Of a stretch of 22,196 nucleotides of DNA, positions 4,306-22,090 are shown piece by piece. This DNA comes from a bacterium (lineage in GTDB: Bacteria > Zhuqueibacterota > Zhuqueibacteria > Oceanimicrobiales > Oceanimicrobiaceae). The position numbers and the translations under genes are program-made. The stretch spans positions 1 to 22,196 of the forward strand of contig JBHHXN010000084.1 in NCBI GenBank assembly GCA_046757025.1, given 5' to 3'. Numbering within the stretch: position 1 is the first letter of the stretch; each line of letters begins with the position of its first letter. A model generated the notes under the pieces. The model saw only the letters and a list, made by a program, of their open reading frames with translations. It searched no databases and had not been told where the DNA came from.

Positions 4306-5946
4306 ATGAAATCCACTGCGCTGTCGCTGACCATTGACTGTAAAGAGCCAATTGCAAATGTGCCTGCCGTCTGGCGTTCCTTTGGTTACGATGAAATCAA
4401 CTGGACTTACACGCCGAGAGGGAAACAAATATTCCGGGAGATCGCTCGCCTATCTTCTGAACCGTATTATATTCGCTGCCATCACACATTTACCACGGGC
4501 AACGGTCTTTCCACTCCCACCAAAGGCTCCGGCAACGTGTGTGGGTTGAACGGCCATAAGCAATTGGTGTATGATTTTACAATTTTCGATCAGGTTTTGG
4601 AAACGTTCTTAAATCATAACTGCAAGCCGATTGTGGAGCTCGGTTTCATGCCGGACTTTCTTTCCAAAGGGCCAAAACCCAAACCCACTTACGACTATTC
4701 TGGCAGCGATCTCTGGATGTATCCTCCAAAAGATTTTCGGCAGTGGGCTGATCTGGTTTACGAGACCGTGCGCCATTGCGTGGAGAAATTTGGGGAGGCC
4801 GAGGTCCGTAGCTGGTACTGGGAAGTCTGGAACGAGCCGGACAATCCGGGCTTTTTCAAGGGCTCGGTGAAAGATTACTGTAAAATATACGATCACGCGG
4901 TGGATGGCGCCGTCAGAGCCTTGCCGTCGATCAAAATTGGCGGACCGGCGCTGGCTCGTTCACCCGGGTTTTTGAACACTTTTTTGAAGCATTGTGTGTC
5001 CGGTAAAAACTACGCCACGGGTCAACGGAGTGTGCGTCTGGATTTCATTTCATTGCATACAAAAGGCACCGGATGGCCGCTGCCGGAGCAACCGTTTGAA
5101 ATGCCGTCTCTGCAAACCATTGTAAGCTACTGGCAACGATACCAGGAGATATTGCAAAAGTATCCCTCACTTAAAGACACGGAAATCCTGTTTGACGAAT
5201 GCGACATGGCTGTGGCCACCGATTACGGTGTACATGATTTTCCCGAATATCGCATCCATAATAGCGAGTACTATCCCATCTTCGTAGTCCGCATGGCGAA
5301 GCGCTTGCTGGATTTTATTTCCGCCACAAAGATGCCGGTGAAATTGTTTACCACCTGGGCATTTTATTTGGAGGGCAAACGATTCTTTGAAGGCAATCGG
5401 GCGCTATTTACCAACGAGAATATAAAAATGCCGATCTTCAACGCGTTCGTGATGTTAGAGATGCTGGGGGAAACCAGACTGAAAATGCAGATTAATTCGT
5501 TCCATGAAAGATCCTTTTCGTACGAGGAATTTCCACGGATTGACGGTTTAGCCACGTTAGATGAGCGAAGGGCCATTTGTGCGATCATCTGGAATTTTAC
5601 TGAAAACGAGGCCAGGGTGGGAGTTGAAAATCTTCAAGTTCAATTCAAAAACCTGCCGGTTCAATGGGAAAGTGTGGATGTTGAATTTTATCGAGTTTGC
5701 CGGGAGTTTAGCAATTCGCATACCGTCTGGCAGTCCCTGGGTGCGTCACAAGATCCAGACCCAGAGCAAATTCAAAAGATTAAAGAAAAGGAAAACTTGC
5801 AGCAGGTCGAAGTGTTACGGGAGGTACCAATCAGCCAGAGCACTTTAACTCATGTGCTTGAATTGCCAGCGCAAAGCATGGTGCTGATGAAAATAATTCC
5901 GGTTCCGGCAAAGGTTATTCAAATTGAGGAGAATCTTTCGCAGTAA
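4306..5946 (+). CDS. Glycoside hydrolase family 39 (beta-xylosidase/alpha-L-iduronidase-like), no signal peptide
   Basis: 546 aa. PIVELGFMP, YPPKD..W, WEVWNEPD (acid/base Glu), IGGPA, LDFISLH and LFDECD (likely nucleophile). C-terminal beta-sandwich with SNSHTVWQSLG and LELPAQSMVL. RBS-like GGAGA upstream. Confidence 0.9.
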   Translation: MKSTALSLTIDCKEPIANVPAVWRSFGYDEINWTYTPRGKQIFREIARLSSEPYYIRCHHTFTTGNGLSTPTKGSGNVCGLNGHKQLVYDFTIFDQVLETFLNHNCKPIVELGFMPDFLSKGPKPKPTYDYSGSDLWMYPPKDFRQWADLVYETVRHCVEKFGEAEVRSWYWEVWNEPDNPGFFKGSVKDYCKIYDHAVDGAVRALPSIKIGGPALARSPGFLNTFLKHCVSGKNYATGQRSVRLDFISLHTKGTGWPLPEQPFEMPSLQTIVSYWQRYQEILQKYPSLKDTEILFDECDMAVATDYGVHDFPEYRIHNSEYYPIFVVRMAKRLLDFISATKMPVKLFTTWAFYLEGKRFFEGNRALFTNENIKMPIFNAFVMLEMLGETRLKMQINSFHERSFSYEEFPRIDGLATLDERRAICAIIWNFTENEARVGVENLQVQFKNLPVQWESVDVEFYRVCREFSNSHTVWQSLGASQDPDPEQIQKIKEKENLQQVEVLREVPISQSTLTHVLELPAQSMVLMKIIPVPAKVIQIEENLSQ

Positions 5947-8900
5947 ATTTTTTGTTAGCAACTTTCTTGATATGTATTTCAATGCGGCGATTGATTTGCC
6001 GGCCATAAGTGGTTGCGTTATCGCTTATGAGAAGAACTTTTCTGCCCTTGACTCGCAATTTGAAGGGATCGAATCGAATGGTTTTGAAGCCCGATTCTAT
6101 CTGGTCTTTTATTACTTGATATTCTACAAAATTCTTATTCATCAAAACTTCCAGAAAGCTTTCTTTGTCGATCTCGAACTGAAACGGTTCTTGTTCGCCG
6201 TGCCCATCGTATTTGTCCAGACGGACTTCGATTCGTTTCAGCATTTCCGGGTCGCGATTGTTAATTTCGAACAAAAATTCTTTCTGAAACTTTTTCGCTC
6301 GATTGAGCGAGAGTGTTTTATTTACGGCGGGCGACCCGATGGCGCAGGCATGGCCGATGAACTGCAATCGAATATCTTTGAAATCATCTAATCGGCTTTT
6401 TACTTTATCCAGAACATTGAGCCAGTACAAATCAGAGGCAGGTACATCTTTTTTAAATTCAGCGACCCCAACGATGATTTTTCTGGGCAGCAAATTTAAT
6501 TTTTTCGATGCAAATGTGGCCATTTTTTCTGGCGTGTAAAATACCCGGTTGAGGGAATCCTTCACCACCAGAAAATAAAGAATGTTTTTTCCGGTCCAGG
6601 GACTGGCATCCCCCTGTGCGTGCTGCCACAAAATGCTGTCCGCGGCCGGTGTGTTGAACCGCACATCCGGAATTTCAGCATACAAAGAATCTGCTTTGAT
6701 TTGAGCTGTTCCCGAAGTTAGCGGTACCGCCGAAACGATATTTGAGACGAAATGCACAGGCAGAAACGTTTTCGATTTTGTCAGAGTCAGCGGTACCGAA
6801 TGAAAGAGATCAGCCACCTCTTCGGTGTGGTCGCTTTGTTTGTGCAGGGTAATTTTCACAAACCGTCTTTCGTTTTTCACCCAAGTGCGATCGGGCTGTG
6901 ATTTTGGATTTAAGTTGGTGATAATTTGTTCGGAGGTGAGCTGTTGCGGTATTTCGATCTGGTGTTCTGAAATACCCGCTTCGATAAAATAACTTTTTAC
7001 CGCTTTCGCCCGTTCGTAAGCTAACTCAGCCGGCTCACCGTTGGTGGCATCGGTGTAGCCACGTAGTTTAATGTGGATGCCGGGATTTTGTTGTAATCGC
7101 TTTACCAGCACTTCTAACGGCGAATACATCAAAGTGGATTTAATGGTTTCAATTTTTGCGCTGCCGTGTTTGAAAAATATTTTTGGGATGAATGGCAGTT
7201 CATACTCATAAACGGTATCGATTTCAGCTACAACCTCTTTCTTCGTTTTAAAAACGCCTTTGGGAATGGTATAAAATGCGGCTCTGAATTTGTTGTTCAA
7301 TTCGTTTTTTTCATGAAGGCGATTTTGCTTGTCGATTTTAGCGCTGATTTCGTGCTTGCCATGTGCTGTCGTGTACCATTTCAAGATGACGGTGGTATCC
7401 ATGCCGGCCGCCAGATCCGCGATAGGTACGGGCTCCAGCGCGGTCATGAATTTGTCCGTTCCGTTATGGCCGTTGTTTAAGTTGCTCAACTGCCGGTGGT
7501 CTTCTAATGTCGTATCGAAAACCTGCAGCACATTTTTCGAAGATCGGGTGTTGCTGAGGTTTGCCACGGTGATAAGCAATTCTCCCTGGTAGTTGTCTTC
7601 CGTTATCCATTTGTCGGGTCTGAATTCGATGTCCGTTATGATCAGATCCGGTAGAATACGGAAATGGGCGATGCGTTCGCCATTCTTATCGGCAAAGCGG
7701 GTATGTTGATCTTTGTCGTAAGCGATAACCGACCAAAAATAATCTCCCACATTTAGTTGAGCCAGGGTGATGCTAACCAGTTTTTGTTTTTCATCGATTG
7801 CGAACCCGGAGTCGATGATGCGCAGGTTTTCATCGCGATGTTTTTCAATGGTCTGAAATAACTCGCCTGCCGGGTCGTCAACCGCTTTGATTATTTTATC
7901 AATTTGCTGACTCCGGTCAAGGCTGGCTTCGGCTTTTTCGATGAGTAAGAGGTAATTGACATCATCATAAAGATCGGGATCGGGCGCTGCTTGCCACACT
8001 AATTTGATACTGTCGGTTTCGACTTCGGTGTAAGTCCCCCGACTTAGATTTTTAAATTCAAAATTTTCCGGGGCGATGGGATAATAATTCACTCCACCTT
8101 GAAAAGAAGCCGAGAAGAAGTCGTTGTTTTCAAGGCTGGCCACGTCCAGTCGCAGGGCTTTGTTTCTACCCGGCAGGACGTTTTTCATGGGAAGGGAGTG
8201 GTCATCCAGGCGGAAACTCAATCCGAGAGAAAGTTTACTCAGGGCGTGGTTGTTGAAGTTGTAGCCTCCGCGCAAGGCCATGCGGTAACTCCAAAAAATT
8301 TCGGTGCCGAAACTGAAGCGTCCGACTTCATCGAGTACTTTCTGGTAATCGGCGGTGAATTGAATTTGCAAACCGTTGTGGGTGCCGAGATTGAGAGCCG
8401 CGCCGGCCCGTAAGGTTCTCGGTAAGGGTGTTTCATCCGAAACAAATGTCAGCGGCTCACCCATCTGCGTCACCGAAAGGCCCATTGAAAATACACCATA
8501 TTGGATAAAGTCATTTTTGAGATTAAAGCGATTTGAGCGATAGAGCAAACCCAGGTCCAGAATCCAGGAGCGGTCACTATAGCCGGCTAATTTACTCTGA
8601 AAATACTTCAGGTTCATGCCCAGCGCCAGATTTTCGGAAATCGCGCTCAGTGGGTGTCCGGTGCTGAAAGTTAAAACCATATCGCTGGCAGCCGCCGGCG
8701 CTTGCAACTGATCGGTGCTGTCAAACTCGCGAATACCCTGATAATAGAACCCGAAAGCCACTTTGGATTGATCGCTCCAGGGTAACGGCAGACGCCGGCC
8801 ATAAATGATCGAAAGGTTGTAGATATCCGCGATCCATTCTGTGTAGGATGTGGAGAGCTGCCATTCGCGCAGAAATCCCGTGGCGCCGGGATTGGCGTAG

Positions 8901-9112
8901 AACGCATGCATCTCGTCGATGGCGCCGGTAAGGCTGCCCGCCAATCCATGTTGACGCGCGCCCGGCAGCATCTTCAGAAAGGCGCCTCCCGATCGAATCT
9001 GACCGGAAAGATTCTGAGGCATTAACTCCATCAAAAGCGCCAGTGAAAAAACCAGCGCTATTCTGGCGGTCAAGCGATTTTTCGTAACGAATCTTCTCAT
9101 TTTGACTTTCAT
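5915..9112 (-). CDS. PorV/PorQ-family outer-membrane beta-barrel fused to FN3-like, CARDB and two OmpA-like domains
   Basis: Start taken at ATG 9112, an ATGA overlap with the upstream stop. Signal peptide, then the PorV-type N-terminus GAFLKMLPGARQHGLAG...DEMHAFYANPGA with alternating beta-strands (~8081-8990). FN3-like LVWQAAPDPD..VNY...GDYFWSVIAYD (~7655-8075). CARDB PDLIITDIEF...IDKQNRLHEKNELNN (~7270-7651). OmpA-like 1: IFFKHGSAKI..LRGYTD..LAYERAKAVKSYF (~6845-7190). OmpA-like 2: FIGHACAIGSPAVNKTLSLNRA..GHGE..GRQINRRIEI (~5965-6465). Confidence 0.85.
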   Translation of the reverse strand: MKVKMRRFVTKNRLTARIALVFSLALLMELMPQNLSGQIRSGGAFLKMLPGARQHGLAGSLTGAIDEMHAFYANPGATGFLREWQLSTSYTEWIADIYNLSIIYGRRLPLPWSDQSKVAFGFYYQGIREFDSTDQLQAPAAASDMVLTFSTGHPLSAISENLALGMNLKYFQSKLAGYSDRSWILDLGLLYRSNRFNLKNDFIQYGVFSMGLSVTQMGEPLTFVSDETPLPRTLRAGAALNLGTHNGLQIQFTADYQKVLDEVGRFSFGTEIFWSYRMALRGGYNFNNHALSKLSLGLSFRLDDHSLPMKNVLPGRNKALRLDVASLENNDFFSASFQGGVNYYPIAPENFEFKNLSRGTYTEVETDSIKLVWQAAPDPDLYDDVNYLLLIEKAEASLDRSQQIDKIIKAVDDPAGELFQTIEKHRDENLRIIDSGFAIDEKQKLVSITLAQLNVGDYFWSVIAYDKDQHTRFADKNGERIAHFRILPDLIITDIEFRPDKWITEDNYQGELLITVANLSNTRSSKNVLQVFDTTLEDHRQLSNLNNGHNGTDKFMTALEPVPIADLAAGMDTTVILKWYTTAHGKHEISAKIDKQNRLHEKNELNNKFRAAFYTIPKGVFKTKKEVVAEIDTVYEYELPFIPKIFFKHGSAKIETIKSTLMYSPLEVLVKRLQQNPGIHIKLRGYTDATNGEPAELAYERAKAVKSYFIEAGISEHQIEIPQQLTSEQIITNLNPKSQPDRTWVKNERRFVKITLHKQSDHTEEVADLFHSVPLTLTKSKTFLPVHFVSNIVSAVPLTSGTAQIKADSLYAEIPDVRFNTPAADSILWQHAQGDASPWTGKNILYFLVVKDSLNRVFYTPEKMATFASKKLNLLPRKIIVGVAEFKKDVPASDLYWLNVLDKVKSRLDDFKDIRLQFIGHACAIGSPAVNKTLSLNRAKKFQKEFLFEINNRDPEMLKRIEVRLDKYDGHGEQEPFQFEIDKESFLEVLMNKNFVEYQVIKDQIESGFKTIRFDPFKLRVKGRKVLLISDNATTYGRQINRRIEIHIKKVANKKFTAKDSPQFE

Positions 9113-12100
9113 CGCACCAGGATCACCTTTTTCCAGCAAATTAAATCACCTGAGCGTAAGGTGATGATGTAAACCCCGCTGCCCACATCCTGACCGTTTT
9201 CGGCGCTGCCATCCCATTCAAACCGATTTGCACCGGTGTTGAACGTCGTTTCAATTAGATTTTTCAGATGATAGCCGCTGATGTCATAGACATCGAGGCT
9301 CACCAGCCGGCTTGAATTTAGTTCAAAGTGAATTTCCAGTCGCTCATGTTTTGCTGGCTGAAATACATTGAGATTGAGCGCAAACAAGTCACAGCCCTGC
9401 TTTGGGGGTAAGGTAAAGACTTCATCGATGGTCAGATTGTTGAACAGTTTTTCCGGATCTTCGTTATCTGCTTTTACCAGAGCTGTGTTGGTCAATTGCA
9501 TGATATTTGAAGAAAGATGGAATGTTACAGTGGCATTCAATTTTAAAGATTTTTCAGAAAACGGCGGCAGGATTCCCAGGCTCGATTTCAGTGTGTCCCT
9601 GCTGGTAAAATTTTCGATGACCACGGAATCCGGTACGATATCCTGAAATTGGACATTTGTTGCAGTAAATTTACCCAAATTTCGAATGGTGAAAAAATAG
9701 GTATATGATTCACCCGCTTTCACGTACCAGAGAGTGTCCGCTCCCTGAATTGCAAACGAGTCGGTTTTCACATAACTTTCAATTGCCACATCGGTAATTC
9801 TGGGCTCGACGTAATTGAAAACCGTATCGATGTCTGAATTGTTGGCCAGAAATTCCGGTTCCTCATCAAATGCTGAAATGGTAACTTTGTTGATTAAAGG
9901 ATTGAGGCCTTCTGGCATGTTAGAGGCCACGGTGACGTCGAATGTGAGGGTGGTATCGGCAAACGGAGACAAAGTACCGAGACGCCATTCTAGAGTGTCA
10001 CGGCCCATGCTAGTTTCATTGCGGACCGAATCCGGTAAAAAATCCAGAACCACCACGTTTTCTGCTGGAAATTTATTTTCATTTTTCACCTGAATGAAAT
10101 AGGAGTAGGTTTCCCCCCTTCGCGCAAAATACACGAATTCGGTGCCTTGTACGACCATCGAATCCGTGGTCACGGTGGCAACCACCGACACGTCGATGAG
10201 CACCGGCTCCACGTAATTAAACACGGTATCCACCGTCGTGTTGTTGGCCAGTTTGTCCGCTGCTTCATTTTGTGCTGTCGCCTCGATTCGGTTGATGAGT
10301 AAATTGGTGCCTTCCGGCATCTGGGGTGCGAGTTTGACATTTGCGATCAGCGTGGTGTCCTGGAAGGGGGCCAGTGAGGCCAGCTGCCATTGCAGCAGGC
10401 TTTCTGCGGAAAAGCTGTCTGCTCTGACCGAATCTGGCAGGAAATCCGTCACCAGCACCTTTTCCGCCGGGAATTTATTTTCGTTTTTCACCGTGATCAA
10501 ATAGGTGTAACCGGCCCCGGCTTTGACGAACCAAAGCGTGTCGGAATTTTGCACCACGAAAGAATCCGTTTGCACCCTGGCACTGACTGAAATATCGATG
10601 ATGACCGGTTCCACGTAATTGAAAAACGTATCGATAGCTGTGTTATTTGTGAGCTTGTCCGGTTGTTCATTATCCGCCTGGATTGTGACGGTGTTCACGA
10701 GCAAATTGCGGCCTTCAGGCATTTTTTCCACAACTCGAGCAGGTAAAATCAAAGTAGTGTCTGCGAAAGGGGCGAGCTGCTGGATCCGAAATTGTACCGA
10801 GTCTCCCGAACTTCCTACCAGCGTCTGCACGGAATCGGGTAAAAAATCGGTTACCACGACATTTTCCGCAGGGAATTTCGTTTCATTTTTCACTTGTAAA
10901 TGGAAATTGAAAATTTCACCCGTGCTGGCAAACCAGAGGGTGTCGGAATTTTGCACAACAAACGAATCGGTTTTGGCTGAAGCTGTGATGGAAACATCGA
11001 TGATGACTGGCTCCACGTAATTGAACAAAGTATCGACGGCGAAGTTGTTTTGCTGTTTCTCTGGATCTTCATTTTCCGCCCGCACCGTAACCGAATTGAT
11101 GAGCGTGTTCAACCCTTCCGGCATGAACGGCGAGACATGGGTTTGGAGGACGATGGTGGTGTCAGCAAATGGCCTCAAATCGCCTAAAATTAGTTGCACA
11201 ATATCACCCTGAGCGGAGCGTGCCACCCTGACCGAATCCGGCAGCGCATTCAACACCACCACATTTCGAGCGGGCAGATCGTCTTCATTTTTTACTTTGA
11301 TGGCCGTGATGTACGGCTTACCGGCTTCTGCAAACCACAGGGTGTCATCCTGTGAAACAAAAAAGGAATCCGCCTTTATCACCGTCGTCACCGACACATC
11401 GGCCAGCCGAGTGTGATAAACCGTATTTGTGGCGGTATTGTTCGCCAGGTCCGAAGACGCTTCGTTGTCTATTTCGACTTGCACGGTATTGACGAGCCGA
11501 TTCAGACCTTGGGGTGCGTTGGAAGCCACGGTGGCAGTGAAAATCATAGTGGTGTCGTACAATGCCGGCAAATCGCCTAAATTCCAGGTGACGGTATCGC
11601 CGAAGGCATGCCCGGCTATTTTTACCAGCTCTGGCAGAAAATCGGTCAGAACGACATTTTTAGCCTCAAACTCATTTCCGTTTTGAACCGTGATGAAATA
11701 GGGGAATGTTTCGCCTCTTTCTGCGAACCACAAGGTGTCGCTGTTTTGAATTTGGAAACGGCTGGTTCGGGAAAACTTATTGACGGAAACATCGGTGAAG
11801 CATTTGGAGGGTTTAAAATAGACCGTGTCAACTGCGAAATCATTGAAGTCGTTGGTATCGCACTGTGCTTGTACGTGACTTTTGTTGATGAAACTTACTA
11901 TCGAGTCTGAAATCGCTTTGGCCACCCGCACCGCATAAGAAAACGTCGTTTCCTGTGCCACGCCCAGTGAATCCAGGTTCCAGAAGGCCACGTTTTTTTT
12001 CAAACTGTCGGGTTGCGGTTCGAAATCAAACGGAATCAGAAAATCCGGGATGGTATCCTGTAGTGCAAAATTAAAAGCGGTGGTGGGGCCCAAATTGGTG

Positions 12101-13284
12101 ATCTCGATTTCGTAGCTGAATTCTTCAACTGCGCAAGTCGTGTCGAGATCGGAATTAACCGAAACAGCCAAATCGAAGTAATTCGGCTCTCCAGAGAAAA
12201 TATAGGTGCCGAGCCCGCGGCCGGTTCCGATGAGGTCGTTCACGGTGATATCCAAAATTCGAATGCTGTCGGATACGCACGACTCCGGCGCGGTGTAGGC
12301 CATGACATAAAAATTTTGAATGATATCCGAAATTTTCCGGTAGATGTCGTTAAATTCTAACCCCTCTACGGTTTTGACATACAAACCACCCGTGGCGGTG
12401 GCAATGCGTTGCAGCACTTTTTCATTGGTAAAATTTCCGAGTGCGATGGTGAATATGGGAATATCCAATTTTTGTGCCATAGAAATGATGGTATCGGGGG
12501 TGATGGTTTCTTGCTCCGGATCGGGCAAAGCATTCCGCCCATCGGTATAAATGACGAGGCTTCTTCTCAACGAGGTTTCTTTTTCGATCATTTCAATGCC
12601 CTGCATCAGGCTGCGGTACAGGGGCGTCCAATTGTCAACTCGAGCCGTATCGATGAAACTGATCAAAGTGTCTTTGTCGCTTGTAGGCGGCAAGGTGCGG
12701 ATGCTGCCATTCACTCCGGCGAATTGAATGACGCCGGTACGGTCCTGGGGTCGCATGTCTTCGACAAACACTCTAAGTCCGTCTTTGGCACGGGTTAACA
12801 GCGGGTCGTTAATGCTGGAGCTCATATCCATCAACAGCAGGGTGCTGGCGGGAATAATCTCTTCGCAATCCTCACAAATTTCGATGAATTGCGGCGCCGG
12901 TTTCTGATCGTATAAATTGGGATTCAAAGGCAGTGAGGGGTTGTTCTTGCGAAATTCCAGTATGGGCTGCCAGATTTGTGAAATGAGCCGACCATTCTGA
13001 GCGGATTCCTGCGGTCTTAACCAGAAATTGGTGTGTGCCAATCCCCGAATGAGATTGTTTTGATTATCCAGAACCGAAACAAAAAAGATGACCGGATAGG
13101 GATAGCCGGCATGAACTCCTCGAATGGCGACACCGTCCAGGGCTTTGTTATTCACTAAAACACTAAGCTCTTGCAAACCCTGAGCGAAATTGGCAGCGGG
13201 CAGTAGTAGAAAGAACAAACAAATTGTCAAGAGAAGTACAATTGATTTAAACAATTTACTTCGCCCGAACAATGCAACAACCAT
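9109..13284 (-). CDS. Large secreted adhesin-like protein: VWA domain, seven DUF11-like Ig repeats and a C-terminal T9SS/FlgD-type sorting domain
   Basis: 1391 aa. Signal peptide ending NFA|Q. VWA with intact MIDAS (DMSSS, WTPLY, YTDG). Repeats D(V/I)SV..DTLWF..GE..Y.I.V.N....A.NV.V.DFLPDSV..NTV..A.NE....NN...DTV. C-terminus NVFQP..SLDVYDISG..WDG..GSGVYII..KKVILVR. Confidence 0.88.
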   Translation of the reverse strand: MVVALFGRSKLFKSIVLLLTICLFFLLLPAANFAQGLQELSVLVNNKALDGVAIRGVHAGYPYPVIFFVSVLDNQNNLIRGLAHTNFWLRPQESAQNGRLISQIWQPILEFRKNNPSLPLNPNLYDQKPAPQFIEICEDCEEIIPASTLLLMDMSSSINDPLLTRAKDGLRVFVEDMRPQDRTGVIQFAGVNGSIRTLPPTSDKDTLISFIDTARVDNWTPLYRSLMQGIEMIEKETSLRRSLVIYTDGRNALPDPEQETITPDTIISMAQKLDIPIFTIALGNFTNEKVLQRIATATGGLYVKTVEGLEFNDIYRKISDIIQNFYVMAYTAPESCVSDSIRILDITVNDLIGTGRGLGTYIFSGEPNYFDLAVSVNSDLDTTCAVEEFSYEIEITNLGPTTAFNFALQDTIPDFLIPFDFEPQPDSLKKNVAFWNLDSLGVAQETTFSYAVRVAKAISDSIVSFINKSHVQAQCDTNDFNDFAVDTVYFKPSKCFTDVSVNKFSRTSRFQIQNSDTLWFAERGETFPYFITVQNGNEFEAKNVVLTDFLPELVKIAGHAFGDTVTWNLGDLPALYDTTMIFTATVASNAPQGLNRLVNTVQVEIDNEASSDLANNTATNTVYHTRLADVSVTTVIKADSFFVSQDDTLWFAEAGKPYITAIKVKNEDDLPARNVVVLNALPDSVRVARSAQGDIVQLILGDLRPFADTTIVLQTHVSPFMPEGLNTLINSVTVRAENEDPEKQQNNFAVDTLFNYVEPVIIDVSITASAKTDSFVVQNSDTLWFASTGEIFNFHLQVKNETKFPAENVVVTDFLPDSVQTLVGSSGDSVQFRIQQLAPFADTTLILPARVVEKMPEGRNLLVNTVTIQADNEQPDKLTNNTAIDTFFNYVEPVIIDISVSARVQTDSFVVQNSDTLWFVKAGAGYTYLITVKNENKFPAEKVLVTDFLPDSVRADSFSAESLLQWQLASLAPFQDTTLIANVKLAPQMPEGTNLLINRIEATAQNEAADKLANNTTVDTVFNYVEPVLIDVSVVATVTTDSMVVQGTEFVYFARRGETYSYFIQVKNENKFPAENVVVLDFLPDSVRNETSMGRDTLEWRLGTLSPFADTTLTFDVTVASNMPEGLNPLINKVTISAFDEEPEFLANNSDIDTVFNYVEPRITDVAIESYVKTDSFAIQGADTLWYVKAGESYTYFFTIRNLGKFTATNVQFQDIVPDSVVIENFTSRDTLKSSLGILPPFSEKSLKLNATVTFHLSSNIMQLTNTALVKADNEDPEKLFNNLTIDEVFTLPPKQGCDLFALNLNVFQPAKHERLEIHFELNSSRLVSLDVYDISGYHLKNLIETTFNTGANRFEWDGSAENGQDVGSGVYIITLRSGDLICWKKVILVR
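9405..12175 (-). repeat. Intragenic tandem domain repeats, 402-bp (134-aa) period
   Basis: The ACGTAATT core of the NYVEP linker recurs at 9809, 10211, 10613 and 11015, exactly 402 bp apart. More divergent units lie on either side, seven in total. Confidence 0.85.
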
Positions 13285-13600: not shown

Positions 13601-15454
13601 ATGAAAAACTTTTTAGAAGAGCTCGACAAAAGAGTCATTTTGTTTGATGGCGCCATGGGCACCATGTTATACAGTCGGGGCGTTTTTATTAATCAGTGTT
13701 TTGACCAGATAAATCTCACCAATCCGCGTCTGGTGAAAGAGATTCATTCCGGTTATGCCAATTCCGGCGCGGATGTTCTGCAGACCAACACCTTTGGCGC
13801 CAATCGCTATAAATTGCTCAAGCACGGTTTAACGGATTCGTTGCAGGCCATCAATTACCAGGGTGCGAAACTTGCCAGAGATGTCGCGGGTAAGCAGCTC
13901 TATGTGGCGGGCTCCATCGGCCCGCTGGGTGTGAAAATCGAACCCTGGGGCAAGCTAAGCAAAGAGGAAGCACAGGAAGCGTTCAGCGAACAGGCAAAGG
14001 CGTTGCTGAATGGCGGGGTGGATTTGTTTATCCTGGAAACGTTTTCAGACTTGAGTGAAATTCAGCAAGCCATCATCGCCATTAAAAAAGTGTCGGATTT
14101 GCCTCTGATTGCGGAGATGACCATCGACAGCTCGGGCAATTCGCTTTACGGTACCGCCACCGAAACCTTTATCTACCAGCTTGACAAATGGGGCGCAGAC
14201 GCGGTGGGCATCAATTGTTCGGTGGGGCCGCCACCTATGATGGACGCGTTGGAAAAAATGGTGCACGTGACCAAAAAGCCCATCATCATTCAACCAAATG
14301 CCGGTAATCCGCGGGTGGTGGAAGAGCGCAACATGTATTTGGCCAGTCCTGAGTATATGAGCGAGTACGCCATGCGATTTATCAAGGGCGGGGCAAAAAT
14401 AGTAGGGGGATGCTGCGGCACCACTCCAGAGCATATCAAAGCAATGGAAAAATCGGTACGGATGTTGAGTCCCAAACAGCACAATTTTTCCATTCACATT
14501 CCAGACGAGATCATCGAAGAAGCCCAACCCGTACCTATGGCGGAAAAAAGCCAGTTTGCCGCCAAGCTGAATCGAGAAGAATTGGTGACCAGCGTGGAAG
14601 TGGTTCCGCCGCGGGGCAGCGACCCCAGCAAAACGTTGAAGGCGACAAAACGGCTCAAACAATTTGGTGTGGATGCCATCAATGTGCCGGATGGCCCGCG
14701 CGCCATGTGTCGAATGGGTGCCCAGCATCTGAGTATTTTGATCGAACAGACCGTGGGCATCGAGACCATTTTACACTATTGCTGCCGCGATCGCAATTTG
14801 CTGGGCATGCAGTCCGATATCATGGGATTGTTTGCGGTGGGCTTGCGAAATATTTTGATCATCACCGGCGATCCGCCGAAAATGGGCGATTATCCCGACG
14901 CCACCGCGGTCTTTGACGTGGACTCCATCGGGCTGACCAACATGGTCAATCGCACCAATCACGGCGTGGACCTCGGGGGCACGCGTTTGGATGCGCCCAC
15001 GGCGTTTCTCATCGGCGTGGGCCTGAATCCCGGCGCCATCGACGTCGAAACCGAAATCCGCCGATTTGAGTGGAAAGTGGATGCCGGCGCAGAATATGCT
15101 ATCACCCAGCCGGTTTTTGATCCGCAAATATTGCTGGATTTTCTCCCAAAAATCCAGCATGTCCGCATTCCCATCATCGCAGGCATTTGGCCGCTGGTGA
15201 GTTTGCGCAACGCGGAATTTATGAACAACGAGGTGCCAGGCGCCACCGTGCCAGAAAAATATATGCAGCGCATGCGATCGGCTCAGGAAAAATCCAAAGA
15301 GGCAGCCCGAGAAGAAGGCATCCGCATCGCTCAGGAGGCCATGGAGCAGGTCCGAGAGCACGTTGCCGGATTCCAGGTGAGCGCGCCATTCGGCAACGTC
15401 GAATACCCCATGAGAGTGCTGACTGTGCTAAAGGAATTTGGCGGTGAAGTTTAG
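13601..15454 (+). CDS. yitJ: Bifunctional homocysteine S-methyltransferase / 5,10-methylenetetrahydrofolate reductase
   Basis: 617 aa. N-terminal HMT domain: FDGAMGTML, TNTFGAN, GINCSVGP, GGCCGTTPEHI (Zn ligands). C-terminal MTHFR domain: EVVPP, HYCCRDRN, TGDPP, TQPVFD. Confidence 0.93.
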   Translation: MKNFLEELDKRVILFDGAMGTMLYSRGVFINQCFDQINLTNPRLVKEIHSGYANSGADVLQTNTFGANRYKLLKHGLTDSLQAINYQGAKLARDVAGKQLYVAGSIGPLGVKIEPWGKLSKEEAQEAFSEQAKALLNGGVDLFILETFSDLSEIQQAIIAIKKVSDLPLIAEMTIDSSGNSLYGTATETFIYQLDKWGADAVGINCSVGPPPMMDALEKMVHVTKKPIIIQPNAGNPRVVEERNMYLASPEYMSEYAMRFIKGGAKIVGGCCGTTPEHIKAMEKSVRMLSPKQHNFSIHIPDEIIEEAQPVPMAEKSQFAAKLNREELVTSVEVVPPRGSDPSKTLKATKRLKQFGVDAINVPDGPRAMCRMGAQHLSILIEQTVGIETILHYCCRDRNLLGMQSDIMGLFAVGLRNILIITGDPPKMGDYPDATAVFDVDSIGLTNMVNRTNHGVDLGGTRLDAPTAFLIGVGLNPGAIDVETEIRRFEWKVDAGAEYAITQPVFDPQILLDFLPKIQHVRIPIIAGIWPLVSLRNAEFMNNEVPGATVPEKYMQRMRSAQEKSKEAAREEGIRIAQEAMEQVREHVAGFQVSAPFGNVEYPMRVLTVLKEFGGEV

Positions 15455-16368: not shown

Positions 16369-16470
16369 ACAGATTTTTAGACCATCGTTGACTTGTGAGT
16401 TGATTCTTTCTAATGAAATGATTTTATTAATTTGAATCAACTTGGATTACAAAATTGCGGGAGTTCACGA

Positions 16471-17349
16471 ATGGCTGAAACGAAATTAAAGAGGTTATTT
16501 GGAGGTTGCTTTACAGTTGACAGTCCGGATTTAACAAAGTCCGATTTAGTTTTCGTGGGTTTGCCAGACGACTCACAATCGTCGTATCGCAGAGGCTGCC
16601 GCTTCGCTCCGGCGCGCATTCGCCAGACTTATACTGGCGAATGCTACAATAGCTGTACCGAACCGGGCGTAGAGCTCGAAAACTCGGTGGTGGACTTTGG
16701 CGATCTGCCCTCACATTCAACCTGGGATGAGACCGCGCAATCTTACAGAGAATGTAGTGAAACGCTTTTGAAACAGGGTAAAATTCCATTTTTCGCCGGC
16801 GGTGATCACGCGGTGACCGTGCCGGTTGTCGAAGCCCTGTCTGCATTGCAGCAGCCTATTCATCTGGTGCAAATCGATGCCCATCCGGACCTGTACCCCG
16901 AATTCGATGGCAGCAAAACTTCCCACGCCTGCACCGCCGCCAGAATGCTCGAATTTGAGCACGTGCATTCTCTGACCCAGATCGGCATTCGCACGATGAA
17001 TAAAATTCAATCTGAGCAGGTGGAGCGTCATCCGCAGCGTTTGTGGATTTACGAAGCCCGCAATTTGACCGGTCATCTACCTGAATTAACGCACCTGCCC
17101 GAGGACGCGCTGGTGTATCTCACCGTGGACATGGACGCCTTTGATCCGGCCTTCGCACCGGGCGTTTCGCATGCGGTTCCAGGCGGCTTGACCGCGCGCC
17201 AGGTGATCGAGTTTATCCACAATTTCCGCGGGCGGTTAGTGGGCATGGATGTGGTGGAAGTGAATCCAGAATGGGATATTCACGATCGCACGGCCATTCT
17301 GGCCGCAAAATTATTGCACGAAGCGATGGGGGTATGCTTAAAAATATGA
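16471..17349 (+). CDS. Ureohydrolase (agmatinase/arginase family), plant-arginase-like
   Basis: Start moved to ATG 16471, which has a GGGAG RBS upstream. Mn-binding motifs GGDHAVT, DAHPD, SHAC, DMDAFDPAFAPG, and EVNP. Confidence 0.9.
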   Translation: MAETKLKRLFGGCFTVDSPDLTKSDLVFVGLPDDSQSSYRRGCRFAPARIRQTYTGECYNSCTEPGVELENSVVDFGDLPSHSTWDETAQSYRECSETLLKQGKIPFFAGGDHAVTVPVVEALSALQQPIHLVQIDAHPDLYPEFDGSKTSHACTAARMLEFEHVHSLTQIGIRTMNKIQSEQVERHPQRLWIYEARNLTGHLPELTHLPEDALVYLTVDMDAFDPAFAPGVSHAVPGGLTARQVIEFIHNFRGRLVGMDVVEVNPEWDIHDRTAILAAKLLHEAMGVCLKI

Positions 17350-17411: not shown

Positions 17412-18791
17412 CTAATTATGAAATATGCACACTTCAAATGGCTGCAATGGCATTTGGCGTTCTGCTGATTGCAGCAAGATTTGCTCTTTGCGGCCGTGGC
17501 TCATGAATTTTTCGTTTGAAAATTTCGCCCGCAATTCGGAGGTAAACCTCAAAGTCACAAGGATTTTCCGGGAAGCAAAATTTAACACCACCAGACCCAG
17601 CCGGCGTCGATGAGAAATGGCAAAAGCGACCACTTCTTGCGCACAGTTGGAATCAATTCGAGTCATTGCCCCTTTTGAAAATTGTGGATGCCTCTTGCGC
17701 AGTTGAATCAAATCACGGTAAAAAGTTTGTACTTCCTGAATACCTTCCGCCCAATTGATGCTCTCTTTTTCGAAGAGACTGAGCGGATTGCGAGCGCCCA
17801 CTTCCTGACCGTTGTAAATGAGCGGGATGCCGGGGATGGTGAAAATCAAGGCCGCATACGGTTTGAAGGCATCGGTTCCGAACAGCTGTGCCGCCCGGGG
17901 CTGGTCGTGGTTTTCAATGAAGCGCAATCTCAGGGCGTTTTGCGGATACAGAGCTTGTGCTTTCAGGATGACTTTCAGGGCTTGATTGGCGGGGGCCCAG
18001 CCTTTCCTGATGTCAGCCAGCGTGTAGTAGAGGTCCCAATCGTAGGTGGCATCGAACGCCTGCAGGTGCATTTGCGGGTGGTCGCCTTCGGCCAGCATGA
18101 AAATGTCCGGCTTGAGATGTTGCAGATGCGTCCGGAGGTCGGCCCAGAATTCCAGCGGCACCAGGCCGGCCACATCGCAACGAAAGCCGTCGATGTCAAA
18201 CTCTTTGACCCAGTAACTGGCTGCTTTTTTAATATATGCTCTCAAATTGCGATCGTCCCAGTTTAAATCGGTCACATCGGACCAGTCGGAGACGCGCCGG
18301 GTAAAATTTCCCAGCCGGTCTCTCCGGAACCATTCTGGGTGCTCCTGCATTGCCATGTGATCGTTGGCGCCGTGGTTGGCCACCAGATCGAGGATGATTT
18401 TCATGTCGAGTTTGTGCACGGCCGACACCAATTGCCGTAAATGGTCCGTTGTTCCCAAATCGGGATGCACGGAAAAATAGTCTCGAATGGCATAGGGGCA
18501 CCCCTTTTTGCCTTTTCGCCCCCGTTGGCCGATGGGGTGGATGGGCATGAGCCACAGCATTTTGACGCCCAAATCCCGCAAACGTGGCAAATCTTCTTTG
18601 AGTTTGTTGAGCGTGCCGAGGTCGCTGTAACTGCGAGGGTAGATTTCATACAAGGTCATGCCCGTAACCCAATCGGGCGAGGTACGCGACTTGAGATGGT
18701 GAAGGCTGCTGGTGACCTGCGTATGCGCTTCTTCCAATAAACCCCGCTCTTTGGGCGCAAAGAGCAGGCCGAAATTAAGCGGAATAATCAT
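17412..18791 (-). CDS. GH13 alpha-amylase-family glycosidase, no evident signal peptide
   Basis: 459 aa. YEIYPR, WLMPIHP, DLVANH (region I), GFRCDVAG (nucleophile Asp), MLAEG (acid/base Glu), FIENHD (region IV). Confidence 0.92.
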   Translation of the reverse strand: MIIPLNFGLLFAPKERGLLEEAHTQVTSSLHHLKSRTSPDWVTGMTLYEIYPRSYSDLGTLNKLKEDLPRLRDLGVKMLWLMPIHPIGQRGRKGKKGCPYAIRDYFSVHPDLGTTDHLRQLVSAVHKLDMKIILDLVANHGANDHMAMQEHPEWFRRDRLGNFTRRVSDWSDVTDLNWDDRNLRAYIKKAASYWVKEFDIDGFRCDVAGLVPLEFWADLRTHLQHLKPDIFMLAEGDHPQMHLQAFDATYDWDLYYTLADIRKGWAPANQALKVILKAQALYPQNALRLRFIENHDQPRAAQLFGTDAFKPYAALIFTIPGIPLIYNGQEVGARNPLSLFEKESINWAEGIQEVQTFYRDLIQLRKRHPQFSKGAMTRIDSNCAQEVVAFAISHRRRLGLVVLNFASRKILVTLRFTSELRAKFSNEKFMSHGRKEQILLQSAERQMPLQPFEVCIFHN

Positions 18792-18988: not shown

Positions 18989-21900
18989 CTATTTTAACTT
19001 GAGCAGCTTCACCGATTTCACCATTGTGCCGGCCTGCAGGCGTAAAATGTAAACGCCTGAAGACAGGTCCATGCCTTGCTCGTCCTGACCGTCCCATTGC
19101 ACCCTGAAGCTGCCAGCCGGTTGTAAGGTATTCAGTAAGGTGCGCACCTTCCGGCCCAGAATATTGTAGATCGACAAATTCACCCGCGATCTTTCCGGCA
19201 GCTCAAACTGGATGGTAGTGACGGGATTGAACGGATTGGGGTAATTTTGAAACAGTTCGAATTGCTCGGGAACGGATTCAGAAACGGGTGCTTTCACAGA
19301 AGTTACAAGCTCAATTACCGAATCTGCCAGCACCAGCACGGTCGCTCCCCACGGGGGCAAATCAAGAGTAAAATTGTTGATACTCGATTTGCTTACGGAA
19401 TAAGCGGTGTCATTCAAAACATCATTCAAATAATAAACTTTACCTGAAAAAAGCGAATCTGCGCTGAGCTGTAAATCAGCCTCTTGAATCGAGAGCGTGG
19501 CAGTGGCTGCGTTGCCGGAGAAGTTGACTGCGGCAATGGCGTTTTCATCAAGCTGGGGTCTCAAGTAGGCATAAACTCGTGCGTGCCCGCTGGCGAGGCG
19601 TTTGATTTGCCGGGAACGAAAGGTCGAGAAGGTGTTGCGGATAGCTCCCAGACGCTGGTAAAAAGCCAGAGTTTCGTCCGCCCTCGCTCGCTGCCAGTTG
19701 ATCTGCCCGCGTCGGTTGGTTTCACCAACCTCCTGGCCTGCGTAGATCAGCGGAATACCGGGAATGGTAAAAAGCAAAGCCGCCCCTGCTTTGGACCGGC
19801 TCAATCCCACAAGCTGAGCAATGCGGGTTTCATCGTGGTTTTCTAAAAATCTCAGATAGTGTGAATTGATGCCGGTAAAATGATTGTAGTTTAAATTAGG
19901 ACTGAAATTCCGGACGCGGTTGTCGAGGCTCTTTAGGCTGCCGCCATTCAAGGTGTTTCTAATTTCTCCATAAAAGTTCCAATCGTAAGCGGCGTCGTTG
20001 GCGCCGCCGAAATCGGCATAATTGTTTTCGCTGCCCGCGCCGGTGCCGTCCGTTTCGCCTAAAATAAAAATGTCCGGACGAACGCGTTTCATCTCTTCCC
20101 GAAAGAGCCGCCACCAGGTGGTTTTACCATAACGGTTTTGGGGACCCCAGTAAACATCCATGCGGTAACCGTCCACGCCTTGGTCCAATATCCAGAATTT
20201 ATACATGTTGAGCATGAAATCTCGGGTTTCGATATTTTGATAATCCAAATTTGCCAGCGTCCAGTTGGAATAATGCACATACACGACATAATTGTTGATG
20301 CTCGTGCGAAATTGTCCCAGCCCGCGATCGTTTCCCAGAATTTGATTCTCCAGCAGCGGACGGTAATTGGAAAAATCCCGATACTCCTCGACATCTTTCA
20401 CCCACTCGTGATTGCCGGATACATGATTTGGCGTGCTGTCGAGGATGACGCGAATCCCCAGGTCGTGGGCTTCCTGAAGAAATGCTTGAAAAGATTCAAA
20501 GGTTCCTAGCTGCGAGTGCACACTAAAAAAATCGGTGATGTTGTAGCCGGCATTGAGCTCGTTGATACTGGTTCCGTTTTCGTAAATGGGCATGAGCCAG
20601 ATGACGGTGGCCCCCAGCGCTTTGATGAGCGGAAGTCTTTCCTGCGCTGCCGCGAAAGTGCCTTGCGGAGTAAAAGCCGGCACGAAAATTTCGTACACGA
20701 TGGCGTCATTCACCCACGCTGGGTTTGAATTGATACTGGCAAATCTTACTTCATTGCCAGGTTTAACGATAAAATAATTTCGTGCTACCCCGATATTCGA
20801 ATCCGGATCGGACAGTTGTAAATCGATGAAATATTCTCCCGGCGTTGCCGGCAGGGGCAACGTGACGGATTCGGCGGTTGCATGGATATTCAACGGTTGT
20901 GGGTTGATGGCATCATCGGAGGTCCAAAGCGCTGAAACCGGATCGTTATCCGGGTCGTTGCTTGCAAAGGTTAATTTCAGCTCGTTGTTTCCACTGCGTG
21001 TGATAAATATTTGCGGTTTTGGAGCGTGTTCAACAAAATAATTAATGATAAGCGGTCCGTCCGTGTAGGTAACCCCGAGGCTATATACCACCTGGACGGA
21101 GAAAAGATTTTCTTTTTCAGCTAAGTTGAAGGTTGCCTGAAACTTGCCGTTTGTAACAGCCACAATTGAAGAATCGCCATTATGAATGATCACTGCCGAG
21201 TTGATCGAGTTGTCCTCCACCAACCCGGCGATGTTTTTTGTCGGACGCAGTTGACGCGGATTGGGTCTCGTTAAAAAGCTGACGATGCCCGGTGGTTCCA
21301 CCAATTCAAAAGTTGTGCTGTCGATAGATGTCGTGCCCTTTGAACTTTGAGCGGCCAGTTTTAAGGTGTGAGTACCAAAATCCAGAGCCGTGGGTGGTAT
21401 GAATGAAAACTTACGGCTGGTCGTATCATAGCCTGTCCCAACGTTTGTGTAAAGCTTACCATCGATGAAAACCTTTATGGAATCCGCCAATACGGTAGAT
21501 GAAAGGGCTGGAAAAATATAAGCCGTGATCTCAGGGATATCGGTTGGCACGGGTTTGCTCACGGAATTTGGCAGCAGATAATGGATGGTCGGATCTTTGA
21601 TAAAGAGGTATGAATTATTGTTGTCCAAAAAATTCATACGCGGATTCAATGGATCCGATTTCCAACCGGTTACCTGGCCATTTTCATTGAATTTGTACTG
21701 GTAAGCCCCCGGAATACTGGTGGATGCCGGCAGCGGCGAGGGTCCCCCCAATCGTAATCTCACAGTTTTGAACCAAATCCCGGTGACCGCGTCTTTGCGC
21801 ATGGCGAATCGGGCGTCAAAAATGCGGCCGTGGATGTTGTTACCCCAATTGTTGAATTCGCCGGGCAAATATACCACGGATGGATTTCCTTGTGGCCGAT

Positions 21901-22015
21901 AAAAAAAAGTCACTTCGACACTGTCTGGTTGTTGGCCAAATAAATCCAGCGGAAAGAAGCAAAAGAATAGCAACAGGATCAGAATTAAGTGTAGTGATTT
22001 TGTTTCAATCTTCAT
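18989..22015 (-). CDS. Secreted multidomain GH13 alpha-amylase-family enzyme with CBM48-like N-terminus, Ig-like linkers and T9SS type A C-terminal sorting domain
   Basis: Start taken at ATG 22015 (MKIETK..., signal peptide ending LFG|Q). CBM48-like VYLPGEFNNW...YQYKF..W.SDPLNP. Catalytic motifs LDSTPNH, GYRMDVYWG, LGETD, FLENHD. C-terminus PEQFELFQNYPNPFNPVTTIQFELP..IYNILGRKV..WDG..SSGVY..KLLKLK. Confidence 0.92.
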   Translation of the reverse strand: MKIETKSLHLILILLLFFCFFPLDLFGQQPDSVEVTFFYRPQGNPSVVYLPGEFNNWGNNIHGRIFDARFAMRKDAVTGIWFKTVRLRLGGPSPLPASTSIPGAYQYKFNENGQVTGWKSDPLNPRMNFLDNNNSYLFIKDPTIHYLLPNSVSKPVPTDIPEITAYIFPALSSTVLADSIKVFIDGKLYTNVGTGYDTTSRKFSFIPPTALDFGTHTLKLAAQSSKGTTSIDSTTFELVEPPGIVSFLTRPNPRQLRPTKNIAGLVEDNSINSAVIIHNGDSSIVAVTNGKFQATFNLAEKENLFSVQVVYSLGVTYTDGPLIINYFVEHAPKPQIFITRSGNNELKLTFASNDPDNDPVSALWTSDDAINPQPLNIHATAESVTLPLPATPGEYFIDLQLSDPDSNIGVARNYFIVKPGNEVRFASINSNPAWVNDAIVYEIFVPAFTPQGTFAAAQERLPLIKALGATVIWLMPIYENGTSINELNAGYNITDFFSVHSQLGTFESFQAFLQEAHDLGIRVILDSTPNHVSGNHEWVKDVEEYRDFSNYRPLLENQILGNDRGLGQFRTSINNYVVYVHYSNWTLANLDYQNIETRDFMLNMYKFWILDQGVDGYRMDVYWGPQNRYGKTTWWRLFREEMKRVRPDIFILGETDGTGAGSENNYADFGGANDAAYDWNFYGEIRNTLNGGSLKSLDNRVRNFSPNLNYNHFTGINSHYLRFLENHDETRIAQLVGLSRSKAGAALLFTIPGIPLIYAGQEVGETNRRGQINWQRARADETLAFYQRLGAIRNTFSTFRSRQIKRLASGHARVYAYLRPQLDENAIAAVNFSGNAATATLSIQEADLQLSADSLFSGKVYYLNDVLNDTAYSVSKSSINNFTLDLPPWGATVLVLADSVIELVTSVKAPVSESVPEQFELFQNYPNPFNPVTTIQFELPERSRVNLSIYNILGRKVRTLLNTLQPAGSFRVQWDGQDEQGMDLSSGVYILRLQAGTMVKSVKLLKLK

Positions 22016-22090
22016 CAAACAGTTCCACAATTTAATTTTTGTATTGTCAAAAGTGTTCCAGTTAATGTCGAACCATGATTTTTGAATATC

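Follow-up and report, generated by a model that had tools for sequence, protein, structure and literature searches.

How does a bacterium outside the Bacteroidota keep a long exported protein on its surface? The question is raised by two adjoining minus-strand genes on a 22,196-nt stretch of contig JBHHXN010000084.1 (positions 1 to 22,196), called the window below. The upstream gene, P0002 (9109..13284, minus strand), encodes a cargo protein of 1391 aa with a signal peptide, a VWA head, a stalk of DUF11 repeats and a type IX secretion system (T9SS) sorting domain at the C-terminus (CTD). The downstream gene, P0001 (5915..9112, minus strand; 1065 aa counted from the ATG at 9112), encodes a PorV/PorQ-family barrel fused to two OmpA-like domains. 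The original prediction read P0001 as a cargo receptor and a wall anchor in one chain, and our analysis supports that overall reading, as the three outcomes fixed in advance as fatal to it turned out the other way: the modelled fold is closest to PorV, the linkage to cargo genes is there, and so is SprA. We consider it probable that the barrel-OmpA protein is the dedicated carrier and permanent anchor of the cargo encoded upstream, tied to peptidoglycan by its periplasmic tail.

One gene pair across the phylum

The two reading frames overlap in an ATGA stop/start (9109..9112, minus strand), and a Shine-Dalgarno-like stretch, AAGGTGAT, lies 9 nt ahead of the P0001 ATG; the exact start of P0001 is unproven because its database entry begins four codons downstream and counts 1061 aa. 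A VWA/DUF11 protein with a sorting domain, coupled in this way to a PorV-family barrel, was therefore found as predicted.

The pair is a conserved, nearly phylum-wide unit. P0001 was matched in 151 of 167 genomes of the phylum, the 16 genomes without a match including some that are near-complete. Under strict thresholds the barrel subfamily, mostly single-copy per genome, was found in 138 genomes and the CTD subtype of its partner in 140. A CTD gene stood directly upstream of the barrel in 76 of 79 genome loci, or in 77 if one locus (L046) whose cargo gene is broken by a gap of Ns is counted, and in 51 of 57 loci from metagenomes; six metagenome loci start at a contig end.

The linkage of PorV-OmpA fusions to CTD cargo genes that the original prediction expected proved near-complete in a neighbourhood survey. 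Among the 150 barrel matches listed (17 further matches exist), 146 adjoin a CTD gene, 134 of them a CTD that was itself listed and 12 on inspection; the remaining four comprise two barrels at contig ends, one with a radical SAM gene in between and one orphan. Seen from the other side, 144 of the 150 CTD matches listed (22 more exist) adjoin a barrel, one has an intervening gene, one lies at a contig end and four are orphans, all in genomes with a barrel elsewhere. The genome and metagenome sets counted here overlap, and related genomes are not independent. The mature barrel begins no more than 120 nt past the cargo stop in 62 of 73 pairs, which leaves room for little beyond a signal peptide. 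In five genomes that carry two pairs, the paralogous barrels are 39-49% identical and their CTDs 36-45%, and each CTD resembles those found in other genomes more closely than it does its own paralog. In one genome (L118:4878-6314) the gene between cargo and barrel encodes a B12-binding radical SAM protein.

A PorV-type barrel, its predicted ligand and its tail

P0001 opens with a signal peptide (residues 1-37; 9002..9112, minus strand), judged by eye and from the N-terminal helix of the model. The next residue, Gln38 (8999-9001), is invariant in all 74 relatives and likely forms the mature N-terminus of the barrel; it also falls in the predicted CTD interface described below. A glutamine at the mature start recalls what is reportedly a Q-rule of Bacteroidetes.

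Residues 38-347 (8072..9001, minus strand) make up the PorV/PorQ-family barrel with its N-terminal hatch, an assignment in which profile, model and structure matches agree. The family profile NF033709 scores 111 bits on P0001 (cut-off 90, residues 44-305) and matches 74 of 74 relatives, while the PorV equivalog profile NF033710 stays far under its cut-off (47 versus 250), and the PorP/SprF profile TIGR03519 gave nothing on P0001 and a weak match in 10 of the 74 relatives. An AlphaFold2 model built on 71 homologues (mean pLDDT 84) places 14 strands in residues 84-345 behind a helical hatch. As the original prediction had it, this region is nearest to PorV: PorV chains were the top Foldseek matches, VIA aligned 286 residues to PorV with Z 29.6 and a root-mean-square deviation of 3.5, and a family profile search matched PorV at E 8.8e-7 with no FadL among the matches listed. 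A sequence search of the PDB with the barrel alone found no match. The nearest barrel labelled Elusimicrobia is 29% identical and stands alone. Given the even strand count and the established topology of such barrels, both barrel ends lie on one side, the periplasm, and the 720-residue tail is therefore predicted to be periplasmic. In the SprF carrier barrel a periplasmic C-terminal tail decides the destination of the cargo (PMC12635249, partial text).

The cargo begins with a signal peptide judged by eye (residues 1-34; 13183..13284, minus strand), after which the mature protein would start at Gln35. Profiles place VWA_3 at about residues 147-330 (12295..12846, minus strand), with the complete letters of a metal-ion-dependent adhesion site (D153-x-S-x-S, T220, D248). 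The predicted stalk (about residues 371-1290; 9415..12174, minus strand) is built of seven Ig-like repeats of the DUF11 kind, and TIGR01451 matches six stretches of it; P0002 would probably act as an adhesin with the VWA domain at its tip.

The CTD itself (residues 1296-1391; 9112..9399, minus strand) is found by Pfam as a FlgD_ig-like end. TIGR04183, the type A profile, scores 24.4 bits on the isolated domain (cut-off 23) and only 19.8 on the whole protein; it matches 72 of 74 partner CTDs of relatives. The type B profile TIGR04131 has no match at the window locus and matches 0 of the 74, and membership of the pair in the PorP/type B class was ruled out by the hidden Markov models TIGR03519 and TIGR04131. 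Partner CTDs lack the PNP motif in all 76 cases, whereas 170 of the 172 CTD-like ends in the host genome have it, and a subtype profile trained without the window CTD scores that CTD at 126, with the next best at 66. The lysine in the last CTD strand is invariant. By these features the partner CTDs are a subtype of their own, still type A-like, that may act as a private sorting signal; this subtype is new, its interface is predicted, and the pair offers a two-component system open to testing.

The predicted interface comes from a model of the barrel with the window CTD, which scores 0.89, the best of three controls reaching 0.13. Runs share at least 96% of contacts and the pLDDT of the partners is at least 86. 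Among solved complexes, 116 of 157 come up to the mark used for such scores, and among mismatched pairs 2 of 215 do; these rates are only rough for the alignments used here. In the model the CTD touches the tip of the hatch and every one of the seven odd loops, with 29 residues in these loops, but no residue of the six even turns; the face involved is the one away from the tail. Modelling predicts that the subtype CTD would bind the outer loops of the barrel; in PorV the CTD sits on the extracellular loops (PMC10994853, partial text).

Behind the barrel, the tail was proposed to hold FN3-like, CARDB and two OmpA-like domains. The last three were borne out by the Pfam scan, which places CARDB at 560-609 and OmpA (PF00691, 48 bits) in two stretches; VIA gives an Ig-like CARDB domain of about residues 487-615 (7268..7654, minus strand), and matches the OmpA part to TagL (Z 13.5) and PorE (Z 11.0). 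The first, residues 348-486 (7655..8071, minus strand), is, in the model, a domain rich in beta strands that holds a helical insert, for which "Ig/FN3-like" is a lead to the fold class: Pfam has no hit there, and the Ig/FN3-clan leads of the Atlas searches all lie below 0.9. In the same searches OmpA clusters came at 0.90 or less. The PorE profile NF052230 matches P0001 in its OmpA part only (22.9, cut-off 600).

PorE binds diaminopimelate (DAP) through D576, N584 and R591 (PMC7192894, PMC12773672, both partial texts). The first OmpA-like domain of P0001 (about residues 640-760; 6833..7195, minus strand) keeps Asp688 and Arg701, and the second (about residues 870-1052; 5957..6505, minus strand) retains Asn931 and Arg938, spaced as in PorE. 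None of these four residues varies in the 71 full-length homologues, a set selected for likeness to P0001. All 24 long variants that were scanned have an OmpA match (above the cut-off in 23), despite rearranged tails and with LysM added in two, and a precomputed one is given for 113 of 120 long homologues among the matches listed, some with LysM. Seventeen matches to the barrel are short; among five inspected, one carries the label partial and several break off abruptly. One or both of the OmpA-like domains may bind peptidoglycan. In three fusion variants of about 1300-1360 aa (P0177, P0193, P0206) the OmpA domain is followed by propeller repeats of the two-component-regulator kind.

A probable carrier and anchor, or something else

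How might such a pair work? Both proteins would be made together from the overlapping genes and would cross the inner membrane by Sec, judging by their signal peptides. The barrel, with its predicted 14 strands, would insert in the outer membrane and leave its tail in the periplasm. The cargo would be exported through SprA, which is whole in the host genome (867 bits), and its subtype CTD is predicted to dock on the outer loops of the barrel. PorU would probably leave this CTD uncut, as the missing cleavage linker and the type B precedent described below suggest, and the cargo would stay bound non-covalently. One or both OmpA-like domains may hold the peptide stems of the wall, and the DUF11 stalk would then be displayed at a fixed spot.

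Several points weigh against this account. All binding in it is predicted, and PorV-CTD complexes are already solved (8gl6), so that the score of 0.89 may reflect memory or likeness; moreover, no generic CTD was among the three controls, and the difference from 0.13 is silent on specificity. Covariation across 144 pairs put 12 of the top 50 couplings in the interface (random re-pairing: mean 1.7, maximum 6), yet shuffles within clades match this signal (means 7.1 and 11.7), and we therefore do not use it as support. Nor is the mirror-tree correlation of 0.52 between barrel and CTD any support, since linked inheritance alone predicts it. Subtype-specific CTD positions showed no significant excess at the interface (6 of 11, p 0.12). 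The full PorE triad is present in neither domain, the first having a loop two residues shorter and no Asn and the second a Cys for the Asp. Four CTD genes and one barrel are orphans; one barrel stops at 465 aa and is followed by no OmpA gene, and another is split by a frame change. Covalent attachment is available, PorU being present in 161 of 167 genomes, and the linker motif used here misses half of the generic CTDs. Finally, the account does not explain how a wall-bound carrier would dock on SprA and leave it when no GldLM motor was detected.

The most serious competitor is a barrel that acts purely as a dedicated shuttle, taking its partner from SprA to PorU for covalent attachment or release, with the OmpA tail setting the location. 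Membership of the barrel in the PorV/PorQ family in 74 of 74 cases, with weak PorP likeness in 10, fits such a role, as do the type A-like CTD and the presence of PorU (843 bits) and of a PorZ-like gene just below its cut-off. Against it stand the one-to-one coupled genes, which suggest stoichiometric use, and the cleavage-linker motif, which precedes only 9 of 74 partner CTDs as compared with 81 of 153 generic ones. PorU cuts within flexible linkers (PMC11969387, partial text), so that the partner CTD may escape cleavage, though the evidence for this is weak. The CTD model, an Ig-like sandwich with a pLDDT of 95, also matches best the CTDs of PorU and PorZ (Z 11.0 and 10.6), which are described as non-cleaved (PMC11285876), although this lead is small and unrelated Ig folds are nearly tied with it. 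On balance we regard a pure shuttle as unlikely. The original prediction presented the route as an alternative to attachment by PorU and anionic lipopolysaccharide; with PorU present, a non-covalent route would run beside covalent attachment and would not replace it.

A second alternative puts the envelope first: the fusion would be a tether between outer membrane and wall like OmpA or Pal, and its partner a structural spacer or scaffold, for a surface layer or sheath, and not an adhesin. The near-universal and mostly single-copy presence of the fusion resembles a housekeeping role, and the bodies of the cargos differ: the DUF11 stalk is found in 37 of 38 scanned and the VWA head in only 16, while one has cadherin-like repeats. 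For PorE itself a main role in tethering the envelope has been put forward (PMC12204202, partial text). This idea has to contend with nine other clear OmpA-domain matches in the host genome, with the 16 of 167 genomes that have no match, and with cargo lengths from less than 700 to more than 2000 aa, which vary as adhesin stalks do. We find it improbable.

Two further ideas turn on Cys923 (codon 6344..6346, minus strand), the sole cysteine of P0001, which replaces the DAP-binding Asp of domain 2 and is invariant in 71 of 71 members of the main clade. In the first, the fusion is a one-chain rivet found throughout the phylum in a T9SS free of GldLM; its barrel catches the private cargo outside, and this cysteine covalently links a peptide stem of the wall or a periplasmic partner; such a link would be new chemistry for an OmpA-like domain, and we hold it to be a long shot. 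In the second, the OmpA-like domains of the main clade have lost peptidoglycan binding, and the pair is held through a periplasmic protein or through each other, for example by a disulfide at Cys923. Both pockets deviate from the PorE triad, and T9SS carriers linked by disulfides through periplasmic cysteines have been described (PMC12635249, partial text). The DAP-carboxylate-binding Arg is nevertheless invariant in both domains, no GldK partner was found above the cut-off, and the canonical Asp motif occurs in 17 of 79 relatives (the Cys motif in 56, neither by pattern in six), in separate clades with five changes between states on a quick FastTree of 74 barrels; loss of wall binding seems very improbable to us. 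A FadL-type transporter of hydrophobic molecules that neighbours a secreted protein by chance was rejected, because at E 0.1 the FadL/TodX family PF03349 does not match P0001 (a match below the cut-off exists in one distant relative) and PorV comes first by sequence and by structure, ahead of the FadL homologues that follow it (Z 24.3, 23.7 and 22.9), with near-complete linkage to one CTD subtype besides.

We return to the barrel-OmpA protein as carrier and anchor, for which a lasting, non-covalent retention of the cargo is what we infer. The scheme needs qualifying in one respect: a close published analogue exists in the PorP-PorE-type B cargo system, though built from other parts in separate chains. 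PorP contacts PorE as well as the type B cargo PG1035, and anchoring to the wall by this route has been proposed for cargos that do not move (PMC9143113, partial text); in F. johnsoniae five cargo-carrier-PorE operons are reported, with a static cargo (PMC12618676, partial text). As in P. gingivalis (PorE-PorP-PG1035) and F. johnsoniae (Fjoh_3952-3951-3950), a cargo gene is here followed by its own 14-strand barrel, and in these systems, as is proposed here, an OmpA C-like domain tethers the carrier to peptidoglycan and the cargo is proposed to stay surface-bound (PMC9143113, PMC12618676, partial texts). Here, in contrast, a single polypeptide combines the barrel with the putative tether, the family of that barrel is PorV/PorQ, and the CTD is type A-like and not type B. 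The tail, ordered Ig-CARDB-OmpA-Ig-OmpA, also differs from PorE, a lipoprotein with TPR, WD40 and CRD parts besides OmpA, and the host lies outside the Bacteroidota. The pair most likely works like a fused PorP+PorE anchor, yet it is a member of neither family.

PorV (6h3i, 8gl6) shares with P0001 its fold and family, a CTD on the extracellular loops (predicted here) and the conserved terminal-strand Lys; P0001 differs in its score far below the equivalog cut-off, its 720-residue tail and its tie to one cargo subtype. In PorQ-PorZ and PorV-PorU, stable pairs within the attachment complex, a PorV-family barrel holds an uncleaved type A-like CTD, an arrangement like the one proposed here, whereas the cargo here is a VWA/DUF11 stalk protein and no sortase component. 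Neither PorQ nor PorV (family model lengths 335 and 367) has a tail like the putative wall-binding one of P0001. OmpA-type proteins join, in a single chain, an outer-membrane barrel and an OmpA C-like domain in the periplasm, as P0001 is predicted to do; the barrel of P0001, unlike theirs, is a PorV type of 14 strands for which a protein ligand is predicted on the outside, and its two OmpA-like domains have altered pockets.

The Bacteroidota model in which a carrier barrel is pinned by PorE rests on pull-downs and operon structure, and a fusion of carrier and wall-binding domain in another phylum would independently support it. Our literature searches, with subscription journals and supplements outside their scope, found no published PorV-OmpA fusion or T9SS of KSB1 among the papers listed, which does not establish absence from print.

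The host genome and the rest of the window

The host genome (5.96 Mb, 94.8% complete) has close relatives labelled KSB1 or Calditrichia, and others with generic labels. The checks proposed for its T9SS came out clearly for SprA and PorU, both present, and SprA was found in 163 of 167 genomes of the phylum. The check for PorE and PorK-N was answered in part: two PorE-like OmpA proteins stand in tandem on contig C204 (L154:3989-7671) but stay under the cut-off (238 and 204 bits versus 600), with no PorP gene seen adjoining, and GldK gave weak partial matches only (79 bits, cut-off 350). GldL, GldM and GldN were not found in the host genome, nor GldM in any of the 167, a negative that is no proof of absence because no positive-control genome matched. 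The T9SS of this phylum may possibly have a different motor or none, and the findings point to a system with SprA and PorU and no detected motor in a widespread uncultured lineage of sediments and aquifers. A 1921-aa PorU2-like protein is encoded besides PorU (L152:306-6068, contig C172), and many genomes of the phylum have two to four PorU-like matches.

The host genome holds 184 open reading frames with a CTD-like end and 17 PorV-family genes over the cut-off, P0001 among them. Twelve other barrel genes directly follow a cargo gene with a divergent CTD (on C3, C6, C16, C21, C25, C28, C29, C60, C114, C121, C132 and C15): nine encode over-cut-off PorV-family barrels, two sub-cut-off ones and one a PorP-like barrel. 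A private carrier is therefore a local habit, and the claim that a cargo-dedicated PorV-family barrel is special to the window locus does not hold; what is special here is the fusion of barrel and OmpA. The rule that type A cargo shares one general PorV while type B cargo has private carriers fails outside the Bacteroidota. In two modules made of a cargo and an extended barrel, L153:1169-7612 on C15 and L156:1705-8503 on C21, the next gene weakly resembles ExbB/TolQ; these genes are candidates for local energisers.

Promoter and terminator scans of the window stayed at chance level (12 versus 10.4 and 14 versus 11.6), and no plasmid match was found. A GH39 glycoside hydrolase gene (4306-5946, plus strand) is convergent with the fusion gene and overlaps its 3' end by 32 bp. 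Two GH13 genes lie at 17412-18791 and 18989-22030 (minus strand), the longer of which ends in an ordinary type A CTD of the PNP kind (40 bits). Genes for an M1 peptidase (1153-2850), a homocysteine S-methyltransferase/MTHFR fusion (13601-15454) and an arginase-family protein (16432-17349), all on the plus strand, are ordinary and apparently unrelated to the pair.

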